Notes: generated from the letters alone by a model not told the origin. Counted from the stretch's first letter, positions 18,012-56,755 are shown. The stretch is 56,755 nt of DNA from a candidate division FCPU426 bacterium (GCA_030038835.1 JASHQZ010000167.1:1-56755), one strand, 5' to 3'. Made by a program: numbers and translations.

Positions 18012-18015
18012 GGGT

Positions 18016-18798: not shown

Positions 18799-18856
18799 GA
18801 TTCTCCAAAAAAATCAGCAGCTTTAAAAACGCACTAAAAATACAACAAATATTAAA

Positions 18857-19582: not shown

Positions 19583-19588
19583 GACGCC

Positions 19589-21189: not shown

Positions 21190-21722
21190 TAACGACCATA
21201 AGCCTCATTAAAAGTGGTGGCTTCAAAATGTATCCAATAGACAGGGAGGCGGACCCCATTGAAAGACAAGTCAGGTACCGGCATTCTCAACATGCTGAAA
21301 ATGTCTTTGATGGCTTGACCAGCCGGGGAATTGTTGTAATTGACGGACGAGATTAAGGTTTCGCCAAAAACTTTGCCGACCAATGGAATCCAGATGGGCA
21401 TGGGATAGCGGACTTGGACATTAATTTTCTGCTTGTTGGTGGACTCATTAACTTTGCAATCGCTGGCCAAAATAGTCAAAAGCGCTTTTTGATTCAGATT
21501 GGAAATGGGCAGGAGCGAGATGGCAAGTTGGGTTTTGAAAACAGTTGAATTACCGATTCCGCCCAAGGAAGCCATCCGGGCTACAGCCAAGGCTGCTCTT
21601 TGGACGGCGAAAGATGCATAGGCCGTGTAGGAAAGCTGGGCCACGGTGAAGAAAATTAGAAAAAGCAAAGGGGCAACCAAAAGGAATTCAACGGCCGATT
21701 GCCCTTTCGCTTTAAGGTTCAT
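21189..21722 (-). CDS. TadE-like pseudopilin
   Basis: N-terminus KGQSAVEFLLVAPLLFLIFF. Confidence 0.7.
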   Translation of the reverse strand: MNLKAKGQSAVEFLLVAPLLFLIFFTVAQLSYTAYASFAVQRAALAVARMASLGGIGNSTVFKTQLAISLLPISNLNQKALLTILASDCKVNESTNKQKINVQVRYPMPIWIPLVGKVFGETLISSVNYNNSPAGQAIKDIFSMLRMPVPDLSFNGVRLPVYWIHFEATTFNEAYGR

Positions 21723-34310: not shown

Positions 34311-34419
34311 CATTAGTTCGCGGTTAACGATTCGCAGTTGATAGCAAGATTTTAAAGACTTAACCAGTGCCTGTGAACCGTGTGTTGCTAATTGCGAACT
34401 AAATTTTGGAGATGTTGAA

Positions 34420-35481
34420 ATGGCTTATTGGAAAGGTTTGATCGAGGAATACCGGGCCTACCTGTCGGTCACCGAAAAAACACCCGTTATTACCCTCAAG
34501 GAGGGTGATACGCCGTTGCTCTATGGCCCCCGCATCTCCCGAAAACTTGGGAATGGCGTCAAAGTCTTTTTCAAGTTTGAGGGGTTGAACCCCACCTGTT
34601 CCTTCAAGGACCGGGGCATGACCATGGCTATTTCCAAGGCTGTGGAAGAAGGTTCCAAGGCGGTTATTTGTGCCTCCACGGGCAACACATCGGCCTCTGC
34701 GGCGGCCTATTCGGCCCATGCAGGCATTTCTTGTGCTGTGCTCCTGCCCCATGGCTCCATCGCGTTGGGGAAATTGGCCCAATCCATGATCTACGGTGCC
34801 AAGGTGCTGGCGGTGGAAGGTAGCTTTGACCAGGCCCTGGCCCTGACCCGGCAATTAGCGGACAAGCATCCTATCACCATGGTGAATTCCAATAACCCTT
34901 ACCGCATCGAGGGACAGAAAACCGCGGCCTTTGAGATTGTGGACACCATCGGTGACGCGCCTGAATACCACGCCATCCCCGTTGGTAACGCTGGAAATAT
35001 CACGGCTTATTGGAGGGGTTACAAGGAATACAAGCAGTTGGGTAAGTCCACGAGATTTCCACGTATGTGCGGCTTTCAGGCCGCTGGCGCGGCTCCGATC
35101 GTCAACAAAAAAATAGTAGAGAATCCTCAGACCATTGCCACCGCCATCAAGATCGGGAATCCTTTTTCCTGGAAAAGTGCGGAAGCCGCCCGGGACGAGT
35201 CCCGGGGCCTAATCGAGGCTGTCACAGACGAGGAAATCCTGGAAGCCTACGAGATGCTGGCTTCAATGGAAGGTATTTTCTGCGAACCCGCTTCCGCCGC
35301 CTCCTTGGCTGGGGTCATCAAGAAAAACAAGGAGGGATACTTCATCGACGGCGAAAGGCGGATCGTCTGCACCCTTACCGGGCATGGACTCAAGGACCCG
35401 GATGCGGCGGTGATGAGAAGCACTAAGCCCACGGTTATCAAACCGGATATGGTTGATATTTTGAAAGCCTTGAAGTTGTAA
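34420..35481 (+). CDS. thrC: Threonine synthase (short, canonical type)
   Basis: NPTCSFKDRGMT PLP-lysine motif, ASTGNTSAS, and the hom-thrC context. Confidence 0.93.
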   Translation: MAYWKGLIEEYRAYLSVTEKTPVITLKEGDTPLLYGPRISRKLGNGVKVFFKFEGLNPTCSFKDRGMTMAISKAVEEGSKAVICASTGNTSASAAAYSAHAGISCAVLLPHGSIALGKLAQSMIYGAKVLAVEGSFDQALALTRQLADKHPITMVNSNNPYRIEGQKTAAFEIVDTIGDAPEYHAIPVGNAGNITAYWRGYKEYKQLGKSTRFPRMCGFQAAGAAPIVNKKIVENPQTIATAIKIGNPFSWKSAEAARDESRGLIEAVTDEEILEAYEMLASMEGIFCEPASAASLAGVIKKNKEGYFIDGERRIVCTLTGHGLKDPDAAVMRSTKPTVIKPDMVDILKALKL

Positions 35482-35509
35482 GGATCGGAATCCAAGCGAG
35501 GACGAAACC

Positions 35510-36745
35510 GTGGCACTTATCGTTCAAAAATACGGCGGATCGTCGGTGGCCAACGCGGAAAAAATGTTGTCCGTCGCCCGACGCGTCGCTAAGAATAGGA
35601 AAGAAGGGAATGAGGTCGTAGTGGTCGTCTCGGCCCCAGGCGACACCACGGATGAGCTCATCGCCAAAGCCCACCATATAACCGATTCACCCGACGAGAG
35701 GGAGCTGGACGTCCTTTTGGCAACGGGGGAACAACAGTCCATCGCTCTCCTTTCTATTGCCCTCAAAAGTCTTGGTTGCGACGCCATTTCCTTCACGGGG
35801 CCCCAAGTTGGGATCGTGACCGACGACGTCCATACCAAGGCCAGGATTGTGAAGGTGGGCGATTCAAAGATCCGATCCGCCCTTAACTTGGGAAAGGTGG
35901 TGATCGTGGCAGGATTCCAGGGAGAGAACAAGGAACATGAAATCACGACCCTGGGCCGGGGCGGAAGCGACTTGACAGCTGTGGCCATTGCCGCGGCCTT
36001 GAAGGCGGACGTTTGCGAGTTCTACAAGGACGTGGACGGGGTTTTCACGGCCAATCCCTCTGTCGTGAAAGACGCCAAGAAAATTTCGTTTATCAGCTAT
36101 GATGAAATGTTGGAGATGGCCAGCGCAGGGGCCCAGGTTTTGAATGCCCGTTCGGTCGAATTCGCTAAAAATTTCGGCATCAAGATCCACGTGAGGCCGA
36201 CATTCAACGAAAAGGAAGGGACAATCGTCATGCAGGAAACTAAAGCCATGGAAAAGGTGGTTATCAGCGGGGTGACCTATAATAAAAATGAGGCCAAGAT
36301 CACGGTCCGGGGAGTCCCTGACAGGCCCGGTATCGCCTCCATCCTCTTCTCCAAGCTGGGGAGGGCCGGAATCAACGTGGACATGATCATCCAAAACATT
36401 GGGGAAAAAGGCCATTCGGACGTTTCCTTCACCGTGGACAAGTCTGAATTCAAGAAGGCCATGAAGGTGGTTTCAGAGGCTTCCAAGGTCTTGAAGCCCG
36501 CCGGCATTCTTTCGGACGAGGGTATCGCCAAGGTTTCGGTGGTAGGAGTGGGCATGCGGTCCCACTCCGGCGTGGCTGCCAACATGTTTACGGCGCTGGC
36601 GGAAGCGGGCGTAAACATTGAGATGATCTCCACCTCGGAGATCAAGATTTCAGTGGTAATTGACGAAAAAGATGTGGCCAAGGCTGTGGCGGCAATCCAC
36701 AAGAAGTTCAACCTGGGTAAAAAAGTTGTGGGAGTACGTGGCTGA
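35510..36745 (+). CDS. lysC: Aspartate kinase
   Basis: (M)ALIVQKYGGSSV, VVVVSA, GRGGSD, and two C-terminal ACT domains. GTG start. Confidence 0.93.
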   Translation: MALIVQKYGGSSVANAEKMLSVARRVAKNRKEGNEVVVVVSAPGDTTDELIAKAHHITDSPDERELDVLLATGEQQSIALLSIALKSLGCDAISFTGPQVGIVTDDVHTKARIVKVGDSKIRSALNLGKVVIVAGFQGENKEHEITTLGRGGSDLTAVAIAAALKADVCEFYKDVDGVFTANPSVVKDAKKISFISYDEMLEMASAGAQVLNARSVEFAKNFGIKIHVRPTFNEKEGTIVMQETKAMEKVVISGVTYNKNEAKITVRGVPDRPGIASILFSKLGRAGINVDMIIQNIGEKGHSDVSFTVDKSEFKKAMKVVSEASKVLKPAGILSDEGIAKVSVVGVGMRSHSGVAANMFTALAEAGVNIEMISTSEIKISVVIDEKDVAKAVAAIHKKFNLGKKVVGVRG

Positions 36746-36834
36746 AAGAAAATTTTGAATGGTTGAGATCTTCCGACCGAACCTTGGCCGGAAAATTACA
36801 TGAACTCAACACTCAAGACTTAGAAGGTGCAGAA

Positions 36835-38436
36835 GTGGGTGATCAGAAAGTAGTCCTATACGACGCGCTGCTGCGTGAAGGCCCCCAGACCCAAGGCATA
36901 AACCTGTCGGTCGAGGACAAGCTGGCGCTTGCCCAGGCCCTGGATGACCTGGGCCTCCACTATCTGGAGGGGGGCTGGCCCGGGGCCAATCCCAAGGACA
37001 CGGAGTTCTTCAAAAGGGTGAAAAAGCTAAAACTCAAGGCTCGCCTTTCGGCTTTCGGCATGACCCGCCGGGCCAAGCACAAGGCCTATGAGGATACGAA
37101 CCTCCTAAACCTGGTGAAGTCCGACGTTTCCACCATCACGGTGGTGGGGAAGACGTGGGATTTCCATGTGACCAAGGCCCTCGGAATTTCCCTCGAACAA
37201 AACCTCGAGATCATCTATGACACGTTGAAGTTCCTCAAGTCCAAGACTGACGAAGTCTTCTTTGACGCGGAGCATTTTTTCGACGGGTATAAAGCCAATC
37301 CAGAGTTTTCACTGAAATGCCTGGAATCCGCGCTGGAGGGCGGGTCCGATTACCTGGTTCTTTGCGATACCAATGGGGGCTCCCTGCCCGAGGAAATCGA
37401 AGCGGTAGTCACCTGCGTCCACCAGCGCTTTCCCCAGGCCGCGATCGGCATCCATTGCCATAACGACTCGGACCTGGCGGTGGCCAACAGCTTGGCCGCC
37501 CTTTCGGCCGGCGCTACCCAGGTTCAGGGCTGCATGAACGGCTATGGGGAACGGGTGGGGAATACCAATTTGACTTCCTTGATCGCCAACTTGGCCTTGA
37601 AGACGGATTATTCCTTCGTGAAGCCCATAAAGCTGGAAAAGCTCATGGAAGTTTCCCACCGCGTGGATGAAATCCTCAATTTATCTCCACAACCCAACGC
37701 GCCCTACGTGGGCAAGAACGCCTTCACCCACAAGGGCGGGATGCATATTGACGCGATGCGCAAATCCAATAAGGCATATGAGCATGTGGACCCAGCCGAA
37801 GTGGGGAACCAGCGAAAGCTGGTCCTTTCCGACCAGGCGGGCCGCGCGGGCGTTCTACATCAGGCGGGGACCCATAGTATCAAGCTGGGGAAGGATACTC
37901 CGGAAACACATGCCATCATCGACGAAGTGAAAAAAATGGAAAGCGAGGGCTACCAATTCGAGGGGGCCGAGGCTTCCTTTGAGATCCTCCTGAAAAAAGC
38001 GTTGGGCAAACACAAGAGCTTCTTCGATTTGGTCAGTTTCCGGGTGATCGTGGAAAACAGGGGCGATGACAAGCTGGTCTCGGAAGCCACAATCAAGGTC
38101 AAGGTGAACGGTATTTTGGAGAATACCGTGGGGGAGGGTGACGGCCCGGTCAACGCCCTCGACCAGGCCCTCCGCAAGGCCCTGACCAAGTTTTATCCTT
38201 CGCTTAGCGAAGTCCGCCTCACCGACTTCAAGGTCCGTGTCCTGGACGCCAAGGAGGGAACAGCGGCCAAGGTGCGTGTTTTGATCGAAAGCCGGGATAA
38301 AAAAGACGCCTGGGGCACGGTCGGCGTTTCGGAAAACATAATCGAAGCTTCCTGGGACGCCCTGGTGGATTCCATAGATTACAAGTTGTTAAAAGACAGC
38401 GGCTCCAAGAACCCCTCCAAACGGGGCAGGCATTGA
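36835..38436 (+). CDS. cimA: Citramalate synthase / 2-isopropylmalate synthase family protein
   Basis: GGWPGANPKDTEFF, the IHCHND HxH motif and a LeuA-dimer-type C-terminal domain. GTG 36835 is 5 nt after AAGGTG (the ORF track starts at TTG 36763). The N-terminal motif reads DALLREGPQ rather than DTTLRDGxQ. Confidence 0.8.
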   Translation: MGDQKVVLYDALLREGPQTQGINLSVEDKLALAQALDDLGLHYLEGGWPGANPKDTEFFKRVKKLKLKARLSAFGMTRRAKHKAYEDTNLLNLVKSDVSTITVVGKTWDFHVTKALGISLEQNLEIIYDTLKFLKSKTDEVFFDAEHFFDGYKANPEFSLKCLESALEGGSDYLVLCDTNGGSLPEEIEAVVTCVHQRFPQAAIGIHCHNDSDLAVANSLAALSAGATQVQGCMNGYGERVGNTNLTSLIANLALKTDYSFVKPIKLEKLMEVSHRVDEILNLSPQPNAPYVGKNAFTHKGGMHIDAMRKSNKAYEHVDPAEVGNQRKLVLSDQAGRAGVLHQAGTHSIKLGKDTPETHAIIDEVKKMESEGYQFEGAEASFEILLKKALGKHKSFFDLVSFRVIVENRGDDKLVSEATIKVKVNGILENTVGEGDGPVNALDQALRKALTKFYPSLSEVRLTDFKVRVLDAKEGTAAKVRVLIESRDKKDAWGTVGVSENIIEASWDALVDSIDYKLLKDSGSKNPSKRGRH

Positions 38437-42456: not shown

Positions 42457-42575
42457 CTCTTATCGCGAGTGGCGGAGGGACAGGCCCGTTGATGCCACGG
42501 CAACCGGACCGTAAAGGGTCGTCAGGTGCCAAATCCTGCTCCGGAAAGAAACGACGATCCGGGGAAAGATGAGAG
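42457..42575 (+). promoter_or_regulatory. SAM-I (S-box) riboswitch aptamer
   Basis: P1 is CTCTTATC (42457-42464) paired with GATGAGAG (42568-42575). Conserved core reads GAGTGGCGGAGGGACAGGCCCGTTGATGCCACGGCAACC ... GGTGCCAAATCCTGC ... GAAAGATGAGAG. Confidence 0.9.
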
Positions 42576-42593: not shown

Positions 42594-42625
42594 AAGGCTT
42601 CCATCTCGGGATGGTGGCCTTTTTT
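42594..42625 (+). terminator. Riboswitch expression-platform terminator
   Basis: AAGGCTTCCATC pairs with GATGGTGGCCTT (one mismatch, one G-U), with a TCGG loop, then TTTTTT. The antiterminator GAGATGGAA (42573-42581) is perfectly complementary to TTCCATCTC (42599-42607) and overlaps the P1 3' strand. Confidence 0.8.
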
Positions 42626-42753: not shown

Positions 42754-43983
42754 ATGAGCTACGTCAAGGCTTTGAAATGCCGCGAATGCGGCCAAGAATA
42801 CGAAAAAACGGCCAAGTACGTCTGTGAGTTCTGCTTTGGACCTTTGGAAGCGGCCTATGATTACGACAATATCAAGAAGGACATTTCCCGTCAAAAGATC
42901 GCCTCGCGCCCGCTGAATATCTGGCGCTATCGGGAATTTCTGCCTGTGGAAGGCACTCGTTACAACACCCTCGAGGAGGGCTATACCCCCCTTCTCAAGG
43001 CCGAGCGGCTGGGTGAGGAACTGGGGCTGTCCAAGCTTTACGTGAAGAACGATTGTGCCAATCCCACTCATTCCTTCAAGGACCGCGTGGTGGCTGTGGC
43101 CTCCACCCGAGCCCTGGAATTGGGCTTTGACACCCTCGCCTGCGCTTCCACCGGCAACCTCGCCAACGCGGTTTCGGCCTACGGGGCCAAGGGCAAAATG
43201 AAACGCTTTGTATTCATCCCCTCCAACCTGGAACCCAGCAAAGTGACGGCATCGCTCATCTACGATCCGAACCTCATTGGAGTCAACGGCAATTACGACG
43301 ACGTCAACCGCCTTTGCAGCGAAATCGCGGGAAAATACAAATGGGCCTTCGTGAACATCAACATGAGGCCCTATTATGCCGAGGGCTCCAAGACCCTCGG
43401 GTTCGAGACCGCAGAGCAGTTGGGCTGGAAAGCCCCGGATCAAGTCGTCGTTCCCGTGGCTTCCGGCTCTCTTTTAACCAAGATTTGGAAAGGGACACAG
43501 GAATTCATTAAGGTGGGCCTCATTGAAAACAAACCCATGAGGGTTTTTGGCGCCCAAGCCGTCGGCTGTTCGCCGGTAACCACCGCTTATAAGGCCAAGA
43601 CTGACACTTTCCGGCCGGTCAAACCCAATACCATCGCCAAGTCCCTGGCTATCGGCAATCCCGCCGATGGTTTTTACGCCCTGAGAACCATCGCCGATTC
43701 CAATGGTGGGGCTGAGATGGTCACAGACGAGGAAATTGTGGAAGGCATCAAACTGCTAGCCCGCACCGAAGGCATTTTCGCGGAAACCGCTGGGGGTGTC
43801 ACGATCGGATGCCTGAAAAAACTGGCCGAATCAGGGGCCTTGGATCCGGATGCGGTGACTGTGGCTTACGTGACCGGAACAGGCTTGAAAACCCAGGAAG
43901 CGGTGACGGGCCATTTAAGGGAAGTAAAGGTCATCCAGCCCAATCTCGCCGCCTTTGAAGCCACCCAACTGGTCCCGGCCTGA
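42754..43983 (+). CDS. Threonine-synthase-family PLP enzyme with an N-terminal zinc ribbon (second ThrC paralog, SAM-regulated)
   Basis: CRECG-x11-CEFC ribbon, NPTHSFKDRVV PLP-lysine motif, ASTGNLANA, 409 aa. Confidence 0.85.
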   Translation: MSYVKALKCRECGQEYEKTAKYVCEFCFGPLEAAYDYDNIKKDISRQKIASRPLNIWRYREFLPVEGTRYNTLEEGYTPLLKAERLGEELGLSKLYVKNDCANPTHSFKDRVVAVASTRALELGFDTLACASTGNLANAVSAYGAKGKMKRFVFIPSNLEPSKVTASLIYDPNLIGVNGNYDDVNRLCSEIAGKYKWAFVNINMRPYYAEGSKTLGFETAEQLGWKAPDQVVVPVASGSLLTKIWKGTQEFIKVGLIENKPMRVFGAQAVGCSPVTTAYKAKTDTFRPVKPNTIAKSLAIGNPADGFYALRTIADSNGGAEMVTDEEIVEGIKLLARTEGIFAETAGGVTIGCLKKLAESGALDPDAVTVAYVTGTGLKTQEAVTGHLREVKVIQPNLAAFEATQLVPA

Positions 43984-43987
43984 ACCC

Positions 43988-44434
43988 ATGAAAAAACTAT
44001 TTTTGGGGCTCGCGGTGCTATGGGTCTCCGGGAGGGTCTGGGCGGTTGCGCCAGAAGATTATTACAATGCCGGCATGGATTTATTTAAAAACCGGGACTA
44101 TGACAAGGCTATTCAGTATTTCCACGCGGCGGTGGACGAGAGGCCTGATTACTGGCAGGCCTACCAATTCCTAGGTGAGGCTTATTACCAGGATGCCAAC
44201 CGGACCGAGGCTGTGCTGGCCATGGAGAAAAGCCTCCAGTTGCATCCTGACAACCCGGACCTCCGTAAGTTTATCTCCAAAATCAGGAAAGATAGCCCCT
44301 GGGCTTCCAACAATTTTTCAACGGTTTTTCTTCCAATTTTGGCTATCCTCCTTTCCCTCTTGAGCCTCGGCTGGACGGGTTATTGGACTTGGAGCCATTC
44401 AACTTTCCATTCCAAGCCGCCCTCCAATCCGTAG
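43988..44434 (+). CDS. TPR-repeat protein with a signal peptide and C-terminal TM
   Basis: MKKLFLGLAVLWVSG signal. TPR consensus (YYNAGMDLFKNRDYDKAIQYFHAAV...). It starts 5 nt after the preceding stop. Confidence 0.6.
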   Translation: MKKLFLGLAVLWVSGRVWAVAPEDYYNAGMDLFKNRDYDKAIQYFHAAVDERPDYWQAYQFLGEAYYQDANRTEAVLAMEKSLQLHPDNPDLRKFISKIRKDSPWASNNFSTVFLPILAILLSLLSLGWTGYWTWSHSTFHSKPPSNP

Positions 44435-44558
44435 AAAAGAAAAAATTGGTCAAAAAAGCTCGCACAACCTGTTTTTTTCTTTAACTTGGACTAATTTAAA
44501 ACGGTTTAAGGGCATTAGCTTAGGGAAAAGGATTTTCAGAGGTTTACCGGAAAAGAGA

Positions 44559-44885
44559 CTACCGAGGAGCCCTTTCCATGCGAGCTTTCGGTTTGATCGT
44601 CTTTGAAGCTTTAAGACGTGGCCTGCCTCTTTGGGCCGTCAAGTTACGGGGCTGTTTTAGGAAATTCTCTACTGGGCAGTCCAGTTGAAAACCGAGGTTA
44701 TAAAGGGTCTTCAGTGTGATATTACGGCCTGACTCCCAGTATTGGACCATTTGGATGGAGACGCCGGCCTGCTCCGCCAATTGGAACTGGGTGTAGCCTT
44801 TTTGGGCGCGGATTTCCCCGATCTTTCTGCCAACTTTTTTTAAGAAGCGCTGGTCGGAGTTCGAGGCGTCGATATAAGGTGTCAT
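44559..44885 (-). CDS. XRE-family helix-turn-helix transcriptional regulator
   Basis: GEIRAQKGYTQFQLAEQAGVSIQMVQYWESGRNITLKTL HTH_3 pattern, with a basic C-terminal tail. Confidence 0.75.
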   Translation of the reverse strand: MTPYIDASNSDQRFLKKVGRKIGEIRAQKGYTQFQLAEQAGVSIQMVQYWESGRNITLKTLYNLGFQLDCPVENFLKQPRNLTAQRGRPRLKASKTIKPKARMERAPR

Positions 44886-45184
44886 ACGGCCTCTCTTATA
44901 AGTTTACTTTTGCACAGAAAAAACCAATGAAGGATTAGTAATTAGGGGTCCAAAGCGGGTCCCGAAGGCTGGCCCCCTAGTTCCCCTTTCGGTTTTCTAC
45001 CCCCGACCCTTCAGCTGAAGTTGAGAGCGTGACAAGATTGTCTAAGTGTTCCATCACTTTAAATGGGGCCGCTTTAAATATCAACGCTGTGACCCTGGGT
45101 AAAACCGTTTACTTGCAGGATGCTAGGGAATTTGTTTTCCGCCAAAAATTTTCTTTTCGGATTCTTTGGCCCTAGAATGACCCT

Positions 45185-47233
45185 ATGCCGGAAAACCATC
45201 TAGAAGACAATCAACCGCGGAAACGGTTCGCGACTAAAACTTTGTTTGCGCTTACGGTACTGGTTCTATCCATACTGCTTGTCTCGGTTTATCTGAGGAT
45301 TCAAGGGGAAAAGAGGCGGAACCGGCCCGCCAGCCTCGAAACTCCGGCTTTTCAAACCCTACCATTGGGCAGCGTCAAACCTGAAGGATGGCTCTTGGGG
45401 CAACTCCAATTGCAGGCGGCAGGACTGACCGGGCACTTAGACGAGTTTTGGCCGGACGTGGAAAACAGCGGTTGGATCGGAGGACATGCCGAGGGTTGGG
45501 AGAGGGCCCCCTATTGGCTTGATGGTTTGGTGCCACTGGCCTACCAAACCGGGGATAAGCGACTCCAGCGCAAAGCCAAACGGTGGATGGACTATATCCT
45601 ATCGCACCAACTTTCGGACGGCTGGCTGGGACCGGAGCAAAGTCCGCCTCCAACCGGCGCTCCGCCCGGTTCTCCCGGACCCGATCCACGCGACCCCTGG
45701 CCCCAGTTCATCATCCTGAAAGTCCTAGCCCAATACGAGGAGGCCACGGGCGATCCCCGGGTGATCCCAGCCATGGAAAAGGACCTCTGGTGCCTTGACA
45801 ACCAACTGAACCAGAGACCGCTTTTCAGCTGGAATTATTTCCGATGGGGGGATTTCCTGGTCAGCCTATTTTGGCTTTACGACCGAACCCATGAACCCTG
45901 GCTTTTGGACCTGGCCGTCAAGGCCGCGAACCAGGGCTACAATTGGCCCAAATACTTCTCCGACCTGCCCATGAAGGATAAGACCCCGGTATGGAACTGG
46001 TACACCCATGGGGTGAACAACGCCATGGGACTCAAGGTGGCGGCTCTTCTTTTCCGACTGACCGGCGATGAAAAATACAAAAAGCTTTCCTTGGAAGCCC
46101 TCCGGGAACTGGACCGTTACCACGGGGAGGCGAACGGGCTTTTCAGCGCGGACGAGTGCCTGGCGGGACGGAATCCCTCCCAGGGCACGGAACTTTGCAC
46201 CATCGTTGAAACTATGTATTCGTTGGAAACGGATTTAGCCGTTTTGGGGGATGTGGAGGACGCGGACCGCCTGGAAAAGATAGCCTTCAACGCCCTCCCG
46301 GCCGCCTGTTCGGCGGATTATTGGGAACACCAATATGACGAACAAGCCAACCAGGTGGCCTGCGTTTACGTGCCACGCCCGGTTTACACCACCAACCGGG
46401 GGGAGGCCAACCTCTTCGGCTTGGAGCCCCAATACGGCTGTTGCACAGCCAATTTCCACCAAGGATGGCCCAAATTTACCTCTCATTTGTGGATGGCAAC
46501 CCCCGATGGGGGCCTTGCAGCCGTGGTTTATGCCCCCTCGTCGGTGGAAACCCAGATATCCGGCCAGACGGTGAAGGTGGAATTAACCACCGATTATCCT
46601 TTTAGCGAAGAATTGACCTTTAAGGTGACGACGCAAAATCCTTTGGAATTCCCGCTTTATTTGCGCATCCCCGAGTGGGCACAAGGAGCGACCTTGACCT
46701 TGCCCGACGGGAGCTCCCAAAAACCGGACACTGGGAGTTTTCAAAAGGTCTTGCGCAAATGGAACGGGACCGAGACCCTCCAGCTTCACCTCCCCATGAC
46801 CTTCAAGGTTCAAAGGTGGTTTCATGACGCAGTGAGCGTGGAGCGGGGGCCACTGGTATTCAGCCTGGGGTTGAAGGAAATATGGAAACCCGCCCGGCCT
46901 TTTTTCTTTCAACCAAAGGGTGAGCACAAAAATGATTATTTTGTAGTACCCGACAGCCCTTGGAATTACGCTTTGGCGCTTAACCCAGGGAACCCCGAAA
47001 AATTCTTAACCCTTCAGGATGGGACTTTACAAGGGGATCCCTTCACATTGGAAGGAGCACCCCTCAAGGTAACCGTGAAAGGAAGGCGTTTGGACGATTG
47101 GGCCTTCGCCACCGGAGCCGCCGAGCCCCCACCCCCAAGCCCGGTGGAAAGCGCCGAGCCCGAGGAAGACTTGACGCTCGTGCCTTACGGCTCCACACGC
47201 CTGAGGGTGACAGAGTTTCCACTTTTGAAGTGA
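45185..47233 (+). CDS. Glycoside hydrolase family 127-like (DUF1680, beta-L-arabinofuranosidase-type), membrane-anchored
   Basis: N-terminal TM. An E-x-C motif (GTELCTIVE) and a CC motif (YGCCTANFHQGWPKF) match the Zn/catalytic Cys arrangement I recall for HypBA1-type enzymes. Confidence 0.7.
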   Translation: MPENHLEDNQPRKRFATKTLFALTVLVLSILLVSVYLRIQGEKRRNRPASLETPAFQTLPLGSVKPEGWLLGQLQLQAAGLTGHLDEFWPDVENSGWIGGHAEGWERAPYWLDGLVPLAYQTGDKRLQRKAKRWMDYILSHQLSDGWLGPEQSPPPTGAPPGSPGPDPRDPWPQFIILKVLAQYEEATGDPRVIPAMEKDLWCLDNQLNQRPLFSWNYFRWGDFLVSLFWLYDRTHEPWLLDLAVKAANQGYNWPKYFSDLPMKDKTPVWNWYTHGVNNAMGLKVAALLFRLTGDEKYKKLSLEALRELDRYHGEANGLFSADECLAGRNPSQGTELCTIVETMYSLETDLAVLGDVEDADRLEKIAFNALPAACSADYWEHQYDEQANQVACVYVPRPVYTTNRGEANLFGLEPQYGCCTANFHQGWPKFTSHLWMATPDGGLAAVVYAPSSVETQISGQTVKVELTTDYPFSEELTFKVTTQNPLEFPLYLRIPEWAQGATLTLPDGSSQKPDTGSFQKVLRKWNGTETLQLHLPMTFKVQRWFHDAVSVERGPLVFSLGLKEIWKPARPFFFQPKGEHKNDYFVVPDSPWNYALALNPGNPEKFLTLQDGTLQGDPFTLEGAPLKVTVKGRRLDDWAFATGAAEPPPPSPVESAEPEEDLTLVPYGSTRLRVTEFPLLK

Positions 47234-47397
47234 GAAATTGGCAAGTTATGGATCGGTCCTTGTCCACGACGGAGACGGGTTTATTCCGGTAGCTTGGCAG
47301 GAAACTAGCCGCAGCGGCTTTCCAATGTTTTCCCCTGGAAATCAAGGGGGGCTTTCGTCATAATCCAGGTTTAATACTGGTTTCAGGAGGAATTTCC

Positions 47398-47694
47398 ATG
47401 GCTGTGAAAGTTCTCATTCCAACCCCTTTGAGGAACCTCACCAACAACCAGGCGGAGGTCGATGCCGAAGGGGCCACCATTTCCGACCTGATCAACAACT
47501 TGGGGAAGAATTACAACGGGTTGAAGGACCGCCTTTGCGACGAAAACGGCAAAATCCGCCGATTCGTGAACATTTACCTGAACGAAGAAGACATCCGTTT
47601 CCTGCAAGGGGAAGCCACGGCCGTCAAGCCCGGGGACCAGGTTTCCATCGTTCCCGCGATAGCGGGAGGATCAGGTGAAAATAAAGACATTTGA
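47398..47694 (+). CDS. CysO/MoaD/ThiS-family ubiquitin-like sulfur-carrier protein with a 7-residue extension after the Gly-Gly
   Basis: [13 protein letters not shown]...[18 protein letters not shown]...[20 protein letters not shown] closely parallels M. tuberculosis CysO as I recall it. Strong AGGAGG SD. Confidence 0.85.
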
Positions 47695-47742
47695 AAGCCA
47701 CCGGCTTTCCTGATCAATCCTCACTTTTCTCAGAGGAACTTC

Positions 47743-47988
47743 ATGGCGGATATTAAGAAACTCATCGAACTGGATTATCCCACCGAACTGGTCACCGAAC
47801 CGGTGCTTTCCAAAATGATCAAGAAATATAACGTCACGGTCAACATCCGCCGGGCCTCCATCACCAAGGGTTTCGGCTACGTCCAAATGGAGATCGAGGG
47901 AGAAGAAAAAGAAGTGCAAAAGGCCCTCGACAATCTTTCTAAACAGGGAATCGACGTTAATCCCATTGTTAAAGACATTGTCGAGTAA
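47743..47988 (+). CDS. Stand-alone NIL-domain protein
   Basis: An 81-aa protein, EPVLSKMIKKYNVTVNIRRASI...GYVQMEIEGEE..., matching the NIL (MetN C-terminal-type) pattern. Confidence 0.7.
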   Translation: MADIKKLIELDYPTELVTEPVLSKMIKKYNVTVNIRRASITKGFGYVQMEIEGEEKEVQKALDNLSKQGIDVNPIVKDIVE

Positions 47989-47992
47989 GGGG

Positions 47993-48601
47993 ATGGCAGA
48001 CACCCAACCTCAAGAAAGATATTCCCGCCAGGTCATCCTCCCGGGAGTCGGGCAGGAAGGCCAGGCCAAGTGGGCCGCATCCAGGATTCTTCTAGCAGGG
48101 GAAGGCGTGATCCTTACGGCAGCCGAGACGGCCTTAAAGTCCAGCGGTATTTCCAACCTCCTGCAATGGAAAACCGACTCCCCTCAAGCTCCCATTGGAG
48201 ATGCGGACCTAACCCTGGTCCTCACGGAAAATTCCGATTTCCGGCGGCGCGCCAGCCGCTGGCTCCGGAAAAACCGAAGGCCTGCCCTTTTCGCCTGGTG
48301 CGCGGGAAGCGGCTACGCCCTTTTCGCGGCTTCCCATTGGGAAAACCATTGTCCGTGCCTGGAATGCTTTGAAACCCTCAATCCAAAGGCCTTCGCTGGC
48401 GGAACGCCTACGACCCAACGCCTATTAGGCGCCTTGGCGGCCTCTGAGGCGTTGCAGTGGATTTTGAAGGGAAGCACGCCCTTGGCAAGCAAGGTTTGGG
48501 TCACATCCCTTGATTCGGGAGTCTCCTTTCATCACGAAGTAAAAGCCTCCGACAAATGCCCGGTCCGGCTGTCGGAGGAAGGGGCGGTTGTAACCCCGTG
48601 A
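47993..48601 (+). CDS. Degenerate ThiF/MoeB (E1)-like protein lacking the nucleotide-binding motifs
   Basis: It retains ERYSRQVILPGVGQEGQ, DLTLVLTENSDFRRR and the CPCLEC CxxC. The Gly-rich loop reads LLAGEGVILTA, and the DxDxVxxSNLxRQ segment is absent. 202 aa. Confidence 0.65.
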   Translation: MADTQPQERYSRQVILPGVGQEGQAKWAASRILLAGEGVILTAAETALKSSGISNLLQWKTDSPQAPIGDADLTLVLTENSDFRRRASRWLRKNRRPALFAWCAGSGYALFAASHWENHCPCLECFETLNPKAFAGGTPTTQRLLGALAASEALQWILKGSTPLASKVWVTSLDSGVSFHHEVKASDKCPVRLSEEGAVVTP

Positions 48602-49551
48602 CCTATAACCGCTACCCTTTAGCCACCGACATCACCCAAATCATCGGCAACACCCCCCTGCTGAAGCTGCAACGCATTCCGGAAAAGGGGGGGGCCCAGA
48701 TCCTTTGCAAACTGGAATTTTACAATCCCGGCGGAAGCGTGAAGGACCGCATCGCCCTGGCCATGATCGAGGACGCCGAAAAGCGCGGTATCCTAAAACC
48801 CGGTGGAACCTTGGTGGAGCCCACCAGCGGCAATACGGGCATCGGTTTGGCTTTGGTGTGCGCCCAGAGGGGCTACCGGTTGATCCTGGTCATGCCCGAG
48901 GATATGAGCCTGGAGCGCCGGGTACTGCTGCGGGCCTATGGCGCCGAATTGGTTTTGACCCCCGCCCAGGGATTGATGGCGGAGGCCGTCCGAAAGGCCA
49001 AAGAGATCAAGCAGCAACACCCGGATTATTTCATGCCGGAGCAATTCGCCAACCGGGCTAATCCCGAAGCGCATAAAAGGACCACCGCGCCCGAGATTGA
49101 AAAGGACACCGGAGGACAATTGGACGCCTTCGTAGCCGGCATTGGAACAGGCGGGACTATCACGGGAGTGGGCGAATATTTCAAGGCCAAGGACCCCAAA
49201 ATAAGGATGGTGGGCGTGGAACCGGCGGCCTCTGCCGTACTTTCAGGCGGCAAGGCGGGTATTCATCGAATTCAAGGCATTGGGGCGGGGTTCGTGCCAC
49301 CGGTCTTGAACCGGTCGATCTTGGACGAGGTGGCAACGGTGGAAGACAAGGAAGCCTTCCTCATGACCAAACGGTTGGCGCGGGAAGAAGGGTTGCTTTT
49401 GGGTATTTCCTCTGGAGCCAATGTGGCGGTGGCGGTCAAGGTGGCCCAGAGGCTTGGGCCCGAGGCCCGCGTGGTCACCCTTTGCTGCGATATGGGGGAA
49501 AGGTATTTCAGCTTGGAAGAGGAATTCGAAAGGCAAGAAAAGAGACATTAA
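48598..49551 (+). CDS. Cysteine synthase (CysK/CysM family PLP enzyme)
   Basis: NPGGSVKDRIA PLP lysine, TSGNTGIGLA, GTGGTITG. GTG 48598 overlaps the upstream TGA (GTGA coupling). The ORF track starts at 48556. Confidence 0.9.
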   Translation: MTYNRYPLATDITQIIGNTPLLKLQRIPEKGGAQILCKLEFYNPGGSVKDRIALAMIEDAEKRGILKPGGTLVEPTSGNTGIGLALVCAQRGYRLILVMPEDMSLERRVLLRAYGAELVLTPAQGLMAEAVRKAKEIKQQHPDYFMPEQFANRANPEAHKRTTAPEIEKDTGGQLDAFVAGIGTGGTITGVGEYFKAKDPKIRMVGVEPAASAVLSGGKAGIHRIQGIGAGFVPPVLNRSILDEVATVEDKEAFLMTKRLAREEGLLLGISSGANVAVAVKVAQRLGPEARVVTLCCDMGERYFSLEEEFERQEKRH

Positions 49552-49563: not shown

Positions 49564-49968
49564 TTAAAATCCCTGATCAGCAACCGACTTCACCCAAACC
49601 TCCCTGTCCTTCGGGCCGTCGAACTCACAGAAATAAATCCCTTGCCAACGGCCCAGCTGGATTTTTCCGTTTTCCACGATTAGGACCAACGAGAATCCCG
49701 TTAACACGGATTTGATATGAGCATCCGCGTTGTCCTCGAAATGCTTAAACTCGGGCGATTGAGGGATGGTTTTTTGGAGGTGGTAGAGGATATCCCTTTT
49801 GACGTCCGGATCGGCATTCTCGTTGATGGTAATGGCGGCGGTAGTGTGGGGGCAAAAAAGAAGGAGAACCCCTGATTTGAACGCGCTTTGGGTCACGAAA
49901 CTCCGAATGGGGGCCGTGATGTCCAGGATTTGCCCGCGTTGTTCGGTGCGGATCTGGATGATTTTCAT
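49564..49968 (-). CDS. yjbQ: YjbQ/UPF0047-family protein (secondary thiamine-phosphate synthase type)
   Basis: A 134-aa protein. LLLFCPHTTAAITINENADPDV and NADAHIKS motifs are typical of UPF0047. Confidence 0.8.
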   Translation of the reverse strand: MKIIQIRTEQRGQILDITAPIRSFVTQSAFKSGVLLLFCPHTTAAITINENADPDVKRDILYHLQKTIPQSPEFKHFEDNADAHIKSVLTGFSLVLIVENGKIQLGRWQGIYFCEFDGPKDREVWVKSVADQGF

Positions 49969-53216: not shown

Positions 53217-54701
53217 ATGATATTTCCCCGTAGGTTTTTTTTATGTAAAACACGCTCTCAGTTGGTCCTTCTTTGGGTCGGTTTGTGTTTAAACTCAACG
53301 GCTTTTGCCCAGAGCTCCGCCCCTTACCTGAAATCCGCCACCCTTTACCTCGCGGTCGACGGCTGGGCCGATATTTGGCTGAATGGCATCCCCATCCGGG
53401 AAAGCCAGCCCTCCACGCCCGCGTCCAAGGGCTTTCAAGTTGTCCAGTGCCTGCCGAAACACCTCTGCTATTTCCAAAACGATAATGTCCTGGCCATTGA
53501 AAACGCCAATGCCTATCACGACCCGCAACCGCTGAACGGCCAAATCGGATTGTCTTACATCCTGAGGCTGCGCTTTTCCGACGGGACACAGAGGGTCCTG
53601 TCCAGCAACGAAACGGCGGAGCATAAAGCCTGCTATCTTCCCAACCGGGAAAGCGAAGAACCTCCGGGTTGGCAAAAGCGGCCCTTTCGCGATGAAGCCT
53701 GGTTTACGCCTTCTGCCATTGGCTGGTCGATCCCGGCGGTGGCGCCGCTGACGGACCCTGAAACCGGCCAACCCATCCAATTTCTATCGGCTTCCGGGGA
53801 AACTTTTAAGGCCCAATACGAGGGTGAAAAGCACCTTTATCGGAGGGAATTTCAGCTAAACATCGCCCCCAATCCCCTTTGCGCCCAAGACCCGATGAAC
53901 ACCTTATCAGGGCGGCCGGACAAGGTTCCTCCACCCACGCCAACGGAAGTTTCCGTACCCCAACGGATTCCGTCCCCGCCCAGCTTTACGCCTTCACCAA
54001 CGGAAACTCCGTTGCCGGCGCCGGCCTTGGTTTGGAAATCAATCCTTGCGCCCACGGCCACCTTTACCTCATGGCCGGCATCCACTTGGACCACCAGCCC
54101 TCAGGACACACCCACTCCAGGTTGGAAGGCGATCGCCCCCCCGGCGCCAACCGAGACCTTTGGATTTGCTCCGGTTTGGACTCCGGTGCCACGTCCGATG
54201 CCCACTTTTTCCCCCCAACCGACGGTCCGGCTTCTTGTAGGGAAACAAAGGCGATTCCTGCCGACTCCCACGCCCATTCCTGGTTTTGAAGCCACCAGCC
54301 GGGCCGACCCTTTTAAAATGAGGGCACCAACTCTGGTACCGACGGTTACGACAACCCGCTCAACAACCGCTGTGGCCGACATGCCGGATGCGGCAAGTCC
54401 CCAAACCGTTGTTTTCCAAAGGACAACTGCTAATATTTACATTAGTTTCGCCGATGGGCCCGGAGTTTACCGGTTGGAAGTAGTGGATGGCACCGGCGCC
54501 CACTTGAGGAATTTATTTGATAAACGCGTTGTGGCGGAACAAGACGAATGGGTGGCATGGGACGGCAAAGACGATGGAGGGAAGGACCTGCCCCCGGGGC
54601 CCTATACTGTCCTCTACACGAAGGATGGGGAGAATCTCAATCATCTTGTACTTATTAAAACCGCACCGGGGCAAGGGGACTCCAAAGGGAATGGCTCTTG
54701 A
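53217..54701 (+). CDS. Secreted protein: N-terminal jelly-roll-like domain, P/T-rich linker of about 170 aa, C-terminal FlgD-Ig-like domain
   Basis: Signal peptide, then LAVDGWADIWLNGIPI, then a proline/threonine-rich region. C-terminus is VYRLEVVDGTG...WDGKDDGGKDLPPGPYTV. Confidence 0.55.
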   Translation: MIFPRRFFLCKTRSQLVLLWVGLCLNSTAFAQSSAPYLKSATLYLAVDGWADIWLNGIPIRESQPSTPASKGFQVVQCLPKHLCYFQNDNVLAIENANAYHDPQPLNGQIGLSYILRLRFSDGTQRVLSSNETAEHKACYLPNRESEEPPGWQKRPFRDEAWFTPSAIGWSIPAVAPLTDPETGQPIQFLSASGETFKAQYEGEKHLYRREFQLNIAPNPLCAQDPMNTLSGRPDKVPPPTPTEVSVPQRIPSPPSFTPSPTETPLPAPALVWKSILAPTATFTSWPASTWTTSPQDTPTPGWKAIAPPAPTETFGFAPVWTPVPRPMPTFSPQPTVRLLVGKQRRFLPTPTPIPGFEATSRADPFKMRAPTLVPTVTTTRSTTAVADMPDAASPQTVVFQRTTANIYISFADGPGVYRLEVVDGTGAHLRNLFDKRVVAEQDEWVAWDGKDDGGKDLPPGPYTVLYTKDGENLNHLVLIKTAPGQGDSKGNGS

Positions 54702-54712: not shown

Positions 54713-54901
54713 ATGGAACAATTTTTTATGGGACTTTGCTTAGCCGTCTTGGGTTTTGGGATTTACCAGTTCTCCCGGATCTTTGGCTTGTACTCGGCCC
54801 AAAACGAAAAAGGCGCCCCGTGGCCTTACTTGGTCCTGTTTACCATCTCTTACGGCTTGATCGGCCTCGGCGCCATCATAATGGCCTTCAGTTTGATGTG
54901 A
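54713..54901 (+). CDS. Hypothetical small membrane protein (62 aa)
   Basis: Two hydrophobic segments. No other support. Confidence 0.35.
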   Translation: MEQFFMGLCLAVLGFGIYQFSRIFGLYSAQNEKGAPWPYLVLFTISYGLIGLGAIIMAFSLM

Positions 54902-54908: not shown

Positions 54909-55607
54909 ATGAGAAATAGGATTTTAGTGGTGGGAGTGGGCGGTCTGGGCTGCCCCGCCGCTTTAGCCCTCGCCGAGGCGGGCGCGGAGAACCTGGGCCT
55001 AATGGACCCCGACCAGGTGGAACTTTCCAACCTGCACCGGCAGATCCTTTATTCCGAAAAGGACTTGGGGCGGTCCAAGGCCGAGGCCGCCGCAGACTAC
55101 CTCCGAAAACGTTACCGCCCCCTTCGTACGGTTCCCATTGTGGAAGCTTTGAACGCCCAAAACGCTGAAAAATTCATTTCAGCCTACGACCTCGTCATTG
55201 ACGGCCTGGATCGATTGGAAAAAAAGTTTTTTTTGAATGACTGGTGCGTCAAGATGGGGAAACCCTTCGTCCATGCCGGAGTAGTCCGATTCGAAGGGCA
55301 AGTCCTGCCGGTTCTTCCGGGCCAAACCGCCTGCTTACGTTGCCTGGTCCCCAAAATCCCCCCCCCGTTCGCCATGCCCACCTGCCAGGATGCGGGCGTT
55401 TTAGGTTCCTTTTCCCAGGCCATCGGTTATCTCCAGGCCCACGAGGCATTGCGCCTGTCCGAAAACCGGGGTCCTTTGCTGCTTTGGAAAGTCAATGCCC
55501 AGGAGAGGCAAGCGAGGTCGCTCATTTCCCGGCGCAATCCTGTCTGTGAAGCTTGCGGCCAAGGCCATGTTGAGAACGAAATGACCCGGCCCCTTTGCGC
55601 TTTCTAA
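54909..55607 (+). CDS. ThiF/MoeB/HesA-family E1-like adenylyltransferase (minimal N-terminus)
   Basis: ILVVGVGGLGCPAALALAEAG Gly-rich loop, DPDQVELSNLHRQ, ACLRC and CEAC zinc motifs. An in-frame TGA at 54894-54896 prevents any longer N-terminus. Confidence 0.85.
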   Translation: MRNRILVVGVGGLGCPAALALAEAGAENLGLMDPDQVELSNLHRQILYSEKDLGRSKAEAAADYLRKRYRPLRTVPIVEALNAQNAEKFISAYDLVIDGLDRLEKKFFLNDWCVKMGKPFVHAGVVRFEGQVLPVLPGQTACLRCLVPKIPPPFAMPTCQDAGVLGSFSQAIGYLQAHEALRLSENRGPLLLWKVNAQERQARSLISRRNPVCEACGQGHVENEMTRPLCAF

Positions 55608-55685: not shown

Positions 55686-56755
55686 AGGGACTTATATACT
55701 TCACTCCCTTTTTCCTTATTTCCGTTGCTTGGCCTTTTTCTTTCTCTTTTTTGGATTCGGTTTGTAGGCCAAAACCTTGTCCAAAAGTGCGTCAAATTCC
55801 TTTTTCTTCTTCAAGCTGTCTCCCTGTGTTCCTCTTTTCCAATAAGGCGCTTATAGGTTAGCCGCTTGCCAGTGGAGCGATCAATGAGGCTTTCAATCCG
55901 TTCCAGCCTAGGACGTTCTACGTTGCCTTCGTTGAGCCTAAATGTGAACTCATTGACGTATCGGGCTAAATGCTTGCGGTCTACATGGTGATAGACCCCA
56001 TTTAAACCCCGCTTCATAACAGCCCAAACGCTTTCAATGCTGTTTGTGGTTACTTGACCCCGGACATATTCCTTGTGGCTATGATTCACGCTTTCGTGCT
56101 TGTAAACGCCATCTAAGGGGTTGTAGCCGTGGTTGTCGTCAGTATTGATAGTGCTACCTTCCTTGACGTTACAAGCCACGGTTTCAGACAGAATGACACT
56201 ATTGACGGCCTTAATCGGCATGGCCTTAGTTCTTCCACCCCGTTCACGCATACCAAGGACAGGTGTTTTGGTGATGGTGCTTTTGCCCCTGTTGCCAGGA
56301 ATGCGCTTATCGGCGTGTTTGTTTTCTTCCTTGCCGCCAACGTAGGTTTCGTCAATCTCCACTATGCCGCTTAACTGGGAAAAATCATGTCCACAAGCCT
56401 CGCGGATACGGCCTAGCAGAAACCAAGCGGTCTTTTGAGTTACGCCGATCTCTTTGGAAAGCTGAATCGAGGAAATGCCCTTCCTGGCCGTGACCAAGAG
56501 GTACATGGCATAAAGCCATTTGTGCAAAGGAACATGGCTTTTCTCAAAGACCGTACCAGTTCTAACGGTGAAGTCCTCAATGCAATAGTTACATCGATAG
56601 AAGCCGTCTTTTCTCACGGTGATCTTATCGCCCTTTTTGCAATATGGGCAAACAGGGCCGTTAGGCCAAAGGCGTTTCTCAATGTAAACTCTGGCCGTCT
56701 CTTGGTCTGGAAACATTTCGAAAAGCTTGAGGGTGTTTAATTTCTCATTTTTCAT
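55686..56755 (-). mobile_element. IS1595-family insertion sequence, truncated by the window edge; the inner boundary is approximate
   Basis: It contains the transposase gene. GC drops to about 47% (28 of 60 at 56101-56160). A hairpin AAGGGA/TCCCTT (55685-55710) lies downstream of the transposase on the minus strand. Terminal repeats cannot be defined because the other end is outside the window. Confidence 0.55.
55811..56755 (-). CDS. IS1595-family (ISXO2-like) transposase
   Basis: N-terminal zinc ribbon CPYCKK...YRCNYC, an HTH (ISSIQLSKEIGVTQKTAWFLLGRI) and a DDE-type domain (VEIDETYVGG...). The ATG is the last three bases of the window. Confidence 0.9.
   Translation of the reverse strand: MKNEKLNTLKLFEMFPDQETARVYIEKRLWPNGPVCPYCKKGDKITVRKDGFYRCNYCIEDFTVRTGTVFEKSHVPLHKWLYAMYLLVTARKGISSIQLSKEIGVTQKTAWFLLGRIREACGHDFSQLSGIVEIDETYVGGKEENKHADKRIPGNRGKSTITKTPVLGMRERGGRTKAMPIKAVNSVILSETVACNVKEGSTINTDDNHGYNPLDGVYKHESVNHSHKEYVRGQVTTNSIESVWAVMKRGLNGVYHHVDRKHLARYVNEFTFRLNEGNVERPRLERIESLIDRSTGKRLTYKRLIGKEEHRETA

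Follow-up and report, generated by a model that had tools for sequence, protein, structure and literature searches.

A group of genes in a 56,755-nucleotide (nt) stretch of DNA from a candidate division FCPU426 bacterium (GCA_030038835.1, JASHQZ010000167.1:1-56755; the whole stretch is referred to as the window) probably codes for a protein-thiocarboxylate route to both homocysteine and cysteine. In this route a ThiS-like sulfur carrier would be activated by a split E1 enzyme, consisting of a live, N-terminally shortened ThiF homologue (ThiF-short) and a dead E1-like protein (E1L), with a NIL domain protein as a probable methionine sensor. This interpretation, drawn from sequence comparison, is given a probability of roughly 60%. 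At the core of the module is an operon of four genes on the plus strand, coding for the ThiS-like carrier (47398-47694; 98 amino acids (aa); Pfam ThiS PF02597), the NIL protein (47743-47988; 81 aa; Pfam NIL PF09383), the degenerate ThiF/MoeB-like E1L (47993-48601; 202 aa) and a PALP/CysK-type enzyme with a GTG start codon (48598-49551; 317 aa). A paralogue of threonine synthase (ThrC), which is a candidate MetM (42754-43983, plus strand; 409 aa; PALP domain and N-terminal zinc ribbon), is encoded upstream behind an S-adenosylmethionine (SAM)-I riboswitch aptamer (42457-42575, plus strand; Rfam RF00162), while the catalytically complete E1 adenylyltransferase ThiF-short is encoded downstream (54909-55607, plus strand). 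The operon reported in a first-pass annotation of the window is real. All four open reading frames (ORFs) occur at these positions and on this strand, with gaps of 48 nt between the carrier and NIL genes and 4 nt between the NIL and E1L genes, a GTGA stop/start overlap between the E1L and cysK genes (48598-48601) and an AGGAGG sequence (47385-47390) 7 nt ahead of the carrier ATG, all as the annotation described. Its naming of the products as a carrier, a NIL protein, a degenerate E1-like protein and a pyridoxal phosphate (PLP)-dependent cysteine synthase likewise agrees with the Pfam matches.

Complementary losses in two E1-like proteins

E1L matches the Pfam ThiF profile with 36.9 bits, residues 10-56 being aligned with profile positions 1-47 of 238, and the confinement of the match to these first 47 positions supports the classification of this protein as a degenerate E1. 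An AlphaFold2 (AF2) model of E1L (predicted local distance difference test score (pLDDT) 87.9; first ~19 residues of low confidence in the monomer) was compared with solved structures using Foldseek and matched MoeB (1JW9_B) and ThiF (1ZFN) with template modelling scores over the query (TMq) of 0.76 and 0.73, respectively. The model thus suggests that E1L adopts the complete MoeB/ThiF E1 adenylation fold. The adenylation residues of MoeB are G41, R73, K86 and D130, and MoeB and ThiF each form a homodimer that has two active sites (PMC12355090). Residues were compared, using the numbering of Escherichia coli MoeB, among 14 members of the E1L family and 11 ThiF-short sequences. E1L keeps an N-terminal RYSRQ arm and a cysteine cluster, with R11, R14, Q15, G38, G40 and three zinc cysteines retained and one new cysteine gained. 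In all 14 aligned members G41 and G43 have given way to other residues, the N70-K86 segment is missing and the position of D130 is mostly taken by Glu. D62 and D127 are lost as well. The invariant residues include R12, Q13, C120, C122, C125, H181, K188 and C189. The earlier view that this E1-like protein is without an ATP site is thereby upheld, the P-loop glycines and the equivalents of Arg73, Lys86 and Asp130 all being lost. E1L is predicted from these losses to be catalytically dead and should not be filed as an active E1.

The reverse pattern is seen in ThiF-short, encoded 5.3 kb downstream of the operon. This protein matches the Pfam ThiF profile with 212.8 bits, starting only from profile position 21. 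It begins with MRNRILVVGVGGLG, so that five residues precede the P-loop, and a stop codon is found immediately upstream of the gene. Its alignment with MoeB starts at residue 32 and that with ThiF at residue 29-31. G38, G40, G41, G43, D62, R73, K86, D130, C187 and the four zinc cysteines are all kept, and the P-loop, D62, R73, K86, D130 and the zinc cysteines are conserved in 11/11 aligned sequences, save for one Val at Cys247. The ThiF-short family comprises at least 103 members, and none of the 103 near-full-length members carries an RxxRQ motif before the P-loop. A cysteine is found within the last seven residues of 100 of these 103 proteins (P0203-P0322), for example in the ending PLCAF, in a tail that follows the second CxxC motif. 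This tail cysteine may do the work of a rhodanese domain, as a site that carries a persulfide or a thioester.

At the sequence level the losses of the two proteins are complementary, the arm missing from ThiF-short being the one that E1L has kept. Arg14 of MoeB and Arg11 of ThiF act as arginine fingers, extending into the adjoining subunit (PMC13139853). E1L may therefore take the place of the second protomer of the MoeB/ThiF homodimer and donate in trans the arginine-finger arm that ThiF-short lacks. Such an arrangement has precedents. In the eukaryotic E1s NAE1-UBA3 and SAE1-UBA2 and in yeast Tcd1-Tcd2 a dead subunit with the adenylation fold supplies a trans arginine finger to a live one, Tcd1-Tcd2 being a ThiF-like heterodimer in which the deficient subunit donates the finger (PMC13139853). 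The complementary losses in the window pair match this pattern. Unlike the eukaryotic heterodimeric E1s, the window pair is prokaryotic, belongs to a metabolic sulfur-carrier setting, has subunits of about 200-250 aa and is without catalytic-cysteine or ubiquitin-fold (UFD) domains, and its heterodimer is a proposal made from sequence.

The first-pass annotation had noted that the operon contains no canonical E1. While this is literally true, an intact ThiF lies 5.3 kb downstream, and the presence nearby of an intact E1 whose defect is complementary to that of E1L indicates that the system does not lack an E1.

Recurrence and conservation of the module

A profile search identified other degenerate ThiF-like proteins which contain ERYSRQ and lack the P-loop, and genomic contexts were obtained for three of these. 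The Candidatus Kryptonia operon (L046; loci are numbered with the prefix L) has the order ThiF(251 aa)-MetM(419)-ThiS(91)-CysK(340)-NIL(93)-E1L(230), that in a JGI metagenome (L047) ThiF(256)-ThiS-CysK-E1L, and that in a member of the Magnetococcales (L045, 5895-8949) Rrf2-ThiF(250)-CysK(306)-E1L(234)-TusA. In all three, the live ThiF is without R11, R14 and Q15 and keeps every catalytic residue, while E1L keeps R11, R14 and Q15 and is without R73, K86 and D130. The combination of an arm-less live ThiF with an arm-bearing dead E1L is thus seen in four lineages, namely that of the window and these three. Identities between the window and Kryptonia proteins are 48% for ThiF, 56% for MetM, 57% for ThiS, 39% for CysK, 35% for NIL and 28% for E1L. 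No ThiS-like ORF was found in the 15-kb Magnetococcales locus when it was scanned for ORFs ending near Gly-Gly, and the carrier of this organism is elsewhere or different. In L046 (6609-11071) and L047 (7700-12353) E1L is followed by four genes coding for a radical-SAM-like protein, a Na/sulfate symporter, a Usp protein and an ATP sulfurylase. The first of these proteins (406-409 aa) has a weak radical-SAM match and is 56% identical between the two loci.

Relatives closer to the window were collected through gene-context look-ups and a metagenome scan (3 loci from a genome-contig scan with a single-sequence query and 32 loci from the metagenome scan with an alignment), and the window proteins were mapped onto 41 non-redundant loci. 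Conservation of the four genes together elsewhere, set beforehand as the check on which the first-pass proposal depended, was observed across this set. NIL is encoded directly 5' of E1L in 27/30 loci with sufficient flank, the carrier gene is present in 24/27 and cysK lies directly 3' of the E1L gene in 32/36, the E1L stop codon overlapping the cysK start codon by 4 nt (ATGA, GTGA or TTGA) in 33/34 loci. The ThiS-NIL-E1L-CysK set moves as a unit, being found in unrelated contexts in L009, L032 and L043. ThiF-short is encoded 2-8 kb downstream of the module in 12 of the 17 loci with sufficient flank, and in L008 its gene has come to lie beside cysK, with a sulfite reductase gene after it. Sulfur assimilation genes are also found beside the L046 and L047 clusters (sulfate symporter and ATP sulfurylase).

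Relocation as a unit, and the lack of an E1, a JAMM protease or a rhodanese inside the operon, are what would be expected were the four genes a self-contained CysO-CysM-type operon in which NIL and E1L provide the activation chemistry in place of a canonical E1, as the first-pass annotation proposed. The annotation was correct in that no Mec/JAMM or rhodanese gene occurs in the operon. Pfam scans of about 56 window ORFs detected neither family, the window E1 is without a rhodanese domain, a scan of the window and 12 loci for the JAMM HxH...SxxD motif returned nothing credible, and no JAMM family is listed among the Pfam families beside the L045-L047 clusters, the remainder of each genome lying outside these scans. 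The loss from E1L of the P-loop glycines and of the Arg73, Lys86 and Asp130 equivalents, the lack of any cysteine in NIL, and the presence of a complete E1 nearby in the window and within the same operon in three other lineages make a self-contained operon highly unlikely.

The E1L family is small and sharply bounded, with 82 clusters among 5.8 billion proteins. At 50% identity, 12 representatives of 1.84 billion have E < 1e-30, followed by a gap to generic ThiF proteins. All members derive from metagenomes or metagenome-assembled genomes, one of which is labelled candidate division FCPU426. That E1L is a pseudogene was rejected, given that the ORFs are intact in about 40 loci, with 41-81% identity and 30 invariant residues, and a 139-aa truncated E1L in L008 proved to be a gene-calling artefact, the RYSRQ arm being encoded in frame upstream. 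Lone E1L genes (L014, L021, L040, L042, L044) occur between GH127 or GreA and DsbA or YjbQ genes. In the L042 protein the otherwise invariant SRQ is changed to SQR, scrambling the RQ motif, and the L044 locus resembles a decayed relic. A closer relative of the E1L family, P0327 (L048, 9001-9648; profile E = 1.4e-53), also stands alone, with no CysO-type ThiS, NIL, CysK or ThiF gene within 9 kb and thiS-thiG-thiE 6-8 kb upstream.

A sigma-70-like promoter (TGGAAA, 17-nt spacer, CATAAT) was located by consensus scan at 47336-47364 on the plus strand, ahead of the four-gene operon. Its hexamers are kept 5' of the carrier gene in every aligned locus, with a variable spacer, and are also present in loci where MetM is encoded immediately 5' of the carrier gene. 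The possession of a conserved promoter of their own indicates that the four genes are an autonomous transcription unit. The 164-nt leader preceding the carrier gene was searched for a second riboswitch or other known RNA, with only a chance match to a miRNA model returned, and its conserved element is the promoter rather than an RNA structure. A 7-bp GC-rich hairpin (47693-47709) is situated in the ThiS-NIL spacer directly after the carrier stop codon, and a stable hairpin occurs in this spacer in many relatives, followed in some (L010, L026, L030) by a T-run, which suggests partial termination that would keep carrier levels above those of the enzymes. 

Several neighbouring genes were also observed. 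Convergent to cysK is a YjbQ/UPF0047 gene ('secondary thiamine-phosphate synthase', 157.9 bits; 49564-49968, minus strand), whose position is kept in only part of the lineage. ThiF-short is always preceded by the gene for a 494-aa protein (53217-54701) that begins with a signal-peptide-like sequence, has a linker rich in Pro and Thr and matches FlgD-Ig weakly, and this protein travels with it even where the block is rearranged (L008, L012). Between the two in the window is a 62-aa hydrophobic ORF (54713-54901). ThiF-short is followed by a transposase of the IS1595 family (ISXO2-like; 55811-56755, minus strand) that is not present at this position in the closest relative, L004. Further upstream, a Tad/Flp-type pilus cluster (12837-21722, minus strand) codes for a T2SSE ATPase, a secretin, RcpC/CpaB and two TadE-like proteins and includes several ORFs without Pfam matches.

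The carrier, the NIL protein and the two PLP enzymes

The carrier matches Pfam ThiS (PF02597) over residues 5-91 with 68.9 bits against a cut-off of 22.5. Its best sequence match in the PDB is 3DWG_C (E = 4.6e-23, residues 2-91), followed by 4N6E_B (E = 1.4e-20). Both chains are taken here to be CysO, that of 3DWG from Mycobacterium tuberculosis, so that the initial description of the carrier as CysO-like stands. The Gly-Gly motif at residues 90-91 is followed by a seven-residue cap, SGENKDI, and 24/24 carrier orthologues end in AIAGG plus 1-7 unconserved residues. As the carriers of the window lineage are all capped, C-terminal trimming would be needed. The carriers of Kryptonia (L046) and L047 end exactly at GG. 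E1L was considered as the trimming enzyme and rejected, as these two clusters keep E1L beside an uncapped carrier.

Two characterised systems resemble this part of the module. The M. tuberculosis CysO-CysM-Mec-MoeZ system (operon types 4c and 4d of Iyer et al. 2006) shares a CysO-like carrier beside a PLP-dependent cysteine synthase. It differs in that its CysM is specific for O-phosphoserine while the window synthase is of the CysK type, and in that the window is without a Mec/JAB gene, has a carrier capped after Gly-Gly and contains NIL and E1L as extra components. The Wolinella succinogenes HcyS-HcyF-HcyD-MetY system with sulfite reductase (operon type 4e of Iyer et al. 2006) likewise combines a capped carrier with an E1 lacking rhodanese and is linked to sulfate/sulfite assimilation genes, as in L008, L046 and L047. 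It employs an O-acetylhomoserine sulfhydrylase and a JAB peptidase, and neither a ThrC paralogue nor NIL nor a dead E1 forms part of it.

The carrier also scores near the thresholds for SAMP1 (57.4 against 60) and archaeal MoaD (50.3 against 49.5), and ThiF-short weakly matches E1-E2 models of cyclic oligonucleotide-based anti-phage signalling systems (CBASS), as might be expected if the carrier and the E1 proteins served molybdopterin or thiamin synthesis, protein conjugation or an anti-phage ubiquitin-like (Ubl) system and the adjacency of cysK were incidental. The window, however, contains no moa, moe or thi genes and no E2 or JAB. The closest solved relative of the carrier is 3DWG_C, and genes for MetM, CysK and sulfate assimilation accompany these proteins across phyla. 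Such roles are accordingly regarded as extremely unlikely, and an anti-phage Ubl/E1 function in particular was rejected, as PADLOC finds nothing for the four operon genes.

A link to homocysteine is provided by the riboswitch and the gene it precedes. The aptamer scores 84.1 bits against a gathering score of 44.4 and is followed by a terminator-like hairpin and T-run (42601-42617). The ThrC paralogue behind it has a PALP match of 224 bits and an N-terminal zinc-ribbon (NinF) match, and shares 35% identity with the window's own ThrC (34420-35481). The latter lies within a hom-thrC-ask cluster (32976-36745), so that the window holds two ThrC-family genes. This cluster forms part of a set of aspartate-family genes (32976-38436) coding for homoserine dehydrogenase, ThrC, aspartate kinase and a LeuA/CimA-like synthase, and no homoserine kinase was seen among the window ORFs. 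In 10 related loci the ThrC paralogue is encoded immediately 5' of the carrier gene, and it is found within the Kryptonia operon; a riboswitch before it was confirmed in all four of those 10 loci that were scanned (L007, L008, L010, L012), as well as in L005. The link to a ThrC paralogue under a SAM riboswitch, drawn in the first-pass annotation, therefore holds. Insertions have increased the distance between this gene and the carrier gene to 3.4 kb in the window, and to 1.3-4 kb across the window and its sub-clade. The genes inserted in the window (43955-47233) code for a tetratricopeptide repeat (TPR) protein, a helix-turn-helix (HTH) regulator on the opposite strand and a GH127 beta-L-arabinofuranosidase-like protein, and this insertion occurs only in the sub-clade of the window, L004, L005 and L017.

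NCBIfam names the ThrC paralogue threonine synthase (NF006050, 304 against 303), and MetM is commonly mis-annotated as such (GapMind 2026 preprint). In the MetM/MetO pathway the thiocarboxylate of MetO reacts with O-phosphohomoserine to form homocysteine, MoeZ serving as the E1 and Mec as the hydrolase (Hasebe et al. 2024 via GapMind 2026 preprint; PMC12172450). By analogy, the arrangement of a SAM riboswitch, a ThrC paralogue and a ThiS-type carrier matches this Streptomyces pathway, which likewise pairs a SAM-riboswitch-controlled ThrC paralogue with a ThiS-family carrier that, as its thiocarboxylate, donates the sulfur for homocysteine. It uses MoeZ, a fusion of E1 and rhodanese, together with the JAMM hydrolase Mec, whereas the window E1 lacks rhodanese and is apparently split, no JAMM gene is found nearby, and a NIL protein and CysK are added. 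The first-pass proposal of an uncharacterised variant of cysteine/homocysteine biosynthesis thus requires narrowing. Since the arrangement matches the MetM/MetO route, the core logic has already been described, and only NIL and E1L are undescribed.

The NIL protein was correctly recognised as a free-standing NIL domain (Pfam PF09383, 61.4 bits against a cut-off of 24). It contains no cysteine and, with 69-91% identity across the lineage, is the second most conserved protein after the carrier (E1L 41-81%). Its AF2 model (pLDDT 81) has a beta-alpha-beta-beta-alpha-beta fold, and the best structural matches are MetN C2 domains (TMq 0.77-0.85), including 3DHW_C, 3TUI_D and 3DHX_A (TMq 0.82-0.85, root mean square deviation about 2 Å). 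NIL is encoded in both of the lineages with MetM in the cluster and is absent from both of those without it. The literature on MetN, and on the NIL-ferredoxin subunit of L-aspartate-semialdehyde sulfurtransferase, the enzyme with which archaea form homocysteine, reads the domain as a regulatory one that binds methionine. The window protein shares with these the fold (TMq up to 0.85) and the metabolic neighbourhood of methionine and homocysteine. In contrast to them it is free-standing, being fused to neither an ABC ATPase nor a ferredoxin, and is linked to an E1-like protein. The modelled fold, the co-occurrence with MetM and this literature favour a putative methionine-sensing regulatory subunit as its probable role.

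The PLP enzyme encoded by the last gene of the operon (PALP, 278.9 bits), in whose translation the SVKDR and TSGNTG motifs of the PLP-lysine and the asparagine loop are visible, had been described as CysM-type. This could not be maintained. The enzyme passes the TIGR01139 cysK equivalog model (440.7 against a cut-off of 350.95) and fails TIGR01138 (298 against 394.2) and NF008735 (312 against 413), both of which represent E. coli-type CysM. Its top sequence matches in the PDB are ordinary CysK enzymes, including 2Q3B, presumably M. tuberculosis CysK1, and the M. tuberculosis CysM chain is not among its 60 best solved relatives. The translational coupling of its gene to that of E1L suggests that this CysK-type product may dock on E1L.

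This coupling, together with the lack of a rhodanese domain in the E1 and the presence in most relatives of five genes behind one SAM riboswitch, which would place the whole set under methionine regulation, could also be explained by carrier-mediated transsulfuration. Here the CysK-like enzyme would act as a cysteine desulfhydrase or lyase that feeds sulfide to the E1-bound adenylate, and only MetM would consume the thiocarboxylate. However, a conserved promoter of their own precedes the four genes, CysK, E1L and ThiF occur without MetM in the L045 and L047 clusters, the sulfate/sulfite assimilation genes flanking several clusters point to assimilatory sulfide, and the enzyme scores above the CysK equivalog cut-off. 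Transsulfuration is consequently considered quite improbable.

The proposed route and its implications

In the preferred interpretation, that of a split E1 within a thiocarboxylate route, the carrier would be made with a short C-terminal cap, which a peptidase would trim to expose Gly-Gly. The carrier would then be adenylated by the two-subunit E1, with the N-terminally truncated ThiF as its catalytic subunit and E1L as its second, and the adenylate converted to the thiocarboxylate. Candidate sources of the sulfur are free sulfide or a persulfide on the C-terminal cysteine of ThiF-short. By analogy with the characterised systems, the thiocarboxylate would be consumed by the MetM-like ThrC paralogue to yield homocysteine and by the CysK-type enzyme to yield cysteine. 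NIL would most likely sense methionine or a related metabolite and throttle a complex of the E1 and CysK.

Several observations weigh against this interpretation. In MoeB and ThiF, the arginine fingers are reported to be catalytically non-essential, and TcdA is without one (PMC13139853), so that ThiF-short might work as a plain homodimer. ThiF-short was not found within 8-10 kb downstream in 5 of the 17 loci with sufficient flank, and as it is part of a strongly syntenic block 2-8 kb away, its proximity to the operon in the window's lineage is weak evidence. No JAMM/Mec gene was seen in the window or in the scanned loci, though turnover depends on such a hydrolase in both of the characterised pathways. 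By its scores the PLP enzyme is an ordinary CysK, and CysK normally uses free sulfide. Furthermore, L014, L021, L040 and L042 retain E1L although no ThiS, NIL or CysK gene accompanies it there.

Some of these points would be accommodated if E1L were a non-catalytic docking or scaffold protein for the carrier and CysK, perhaps with NIL, and ThiF-short an ordinary, finger-less homodimer acting independently of it. The reported dispensability of the finger agrees with this, as do the overlap of the E1L stop codon with the CysK start codon in 33/34 loci and the position of E1L, which in all four lineages is next to CysK or NIL. There are non-catalytic E1-like domains whose sole function is to bind a peptide substrate, and the structural matches of E1L include the cyanobactin heterocyclases 4V1T and 4BS9. 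Docking would nevertheless leave unexplained why the live ThiF has lost, in four lineages, exactly the arm that E1L keeps, and why E1L is retained at loci from which the CysK, NIL and ThiS genes have disappeared. Such retention agrees with a role connected to the E1 and not to CysK alone. A docking function on its own is considered unlikely. The universal adjacency and coupling of E1L to CysK equally suggest a docking role toward CysK, which is compatible with a role as an E1 subunit.

A more far-reaching version of the split-E1 interpretation can be put forward tentatively, the odds being somewhat against it. E1L and ThiF-short would form an obligate heterodimeric E1 in at least three phyla, as a metabolic equivalent in prokaryotes of the eukaryotic pairing of inactive and active adenylation domains. 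It would join CysK, and a methionine-sensing NIL where MetM is present, in a regulated complex, and this complex may be JAMM-free. As no JAMM hydrolase is encoded near any of these clusters, the thiocarboxylate complex might run without one.

To our knowledge, the known routes that employ carrier thiocarboxylates, for cysteine (2005) and for homocysteine (2024), always involve a homodimeric E1 and a JAMM hydrolase. Neither E1L nor a free NIL protein has been described for this pathway, and the novelty of the module lies in these accessory proteins and in their recurrence across phyla. There are also practical consequences for annotation, in which these MetM-like genes are labelled threonine synthase and E1L an adenylyltransferase, so that metabolic reconstructions of uncultured lineages are misled. 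The free NIL protein could be the first case of a putative methionine sensor that controls a sulfur-carrier system. If ThiF-short and E1L do pair, the asymmetric E1 design of the eukaryotic ubiquitin-like systems would also have arisen in bacterial sulfur metabolism, and the pair would provide a minimal and tractable model for the role of the inactive domain.

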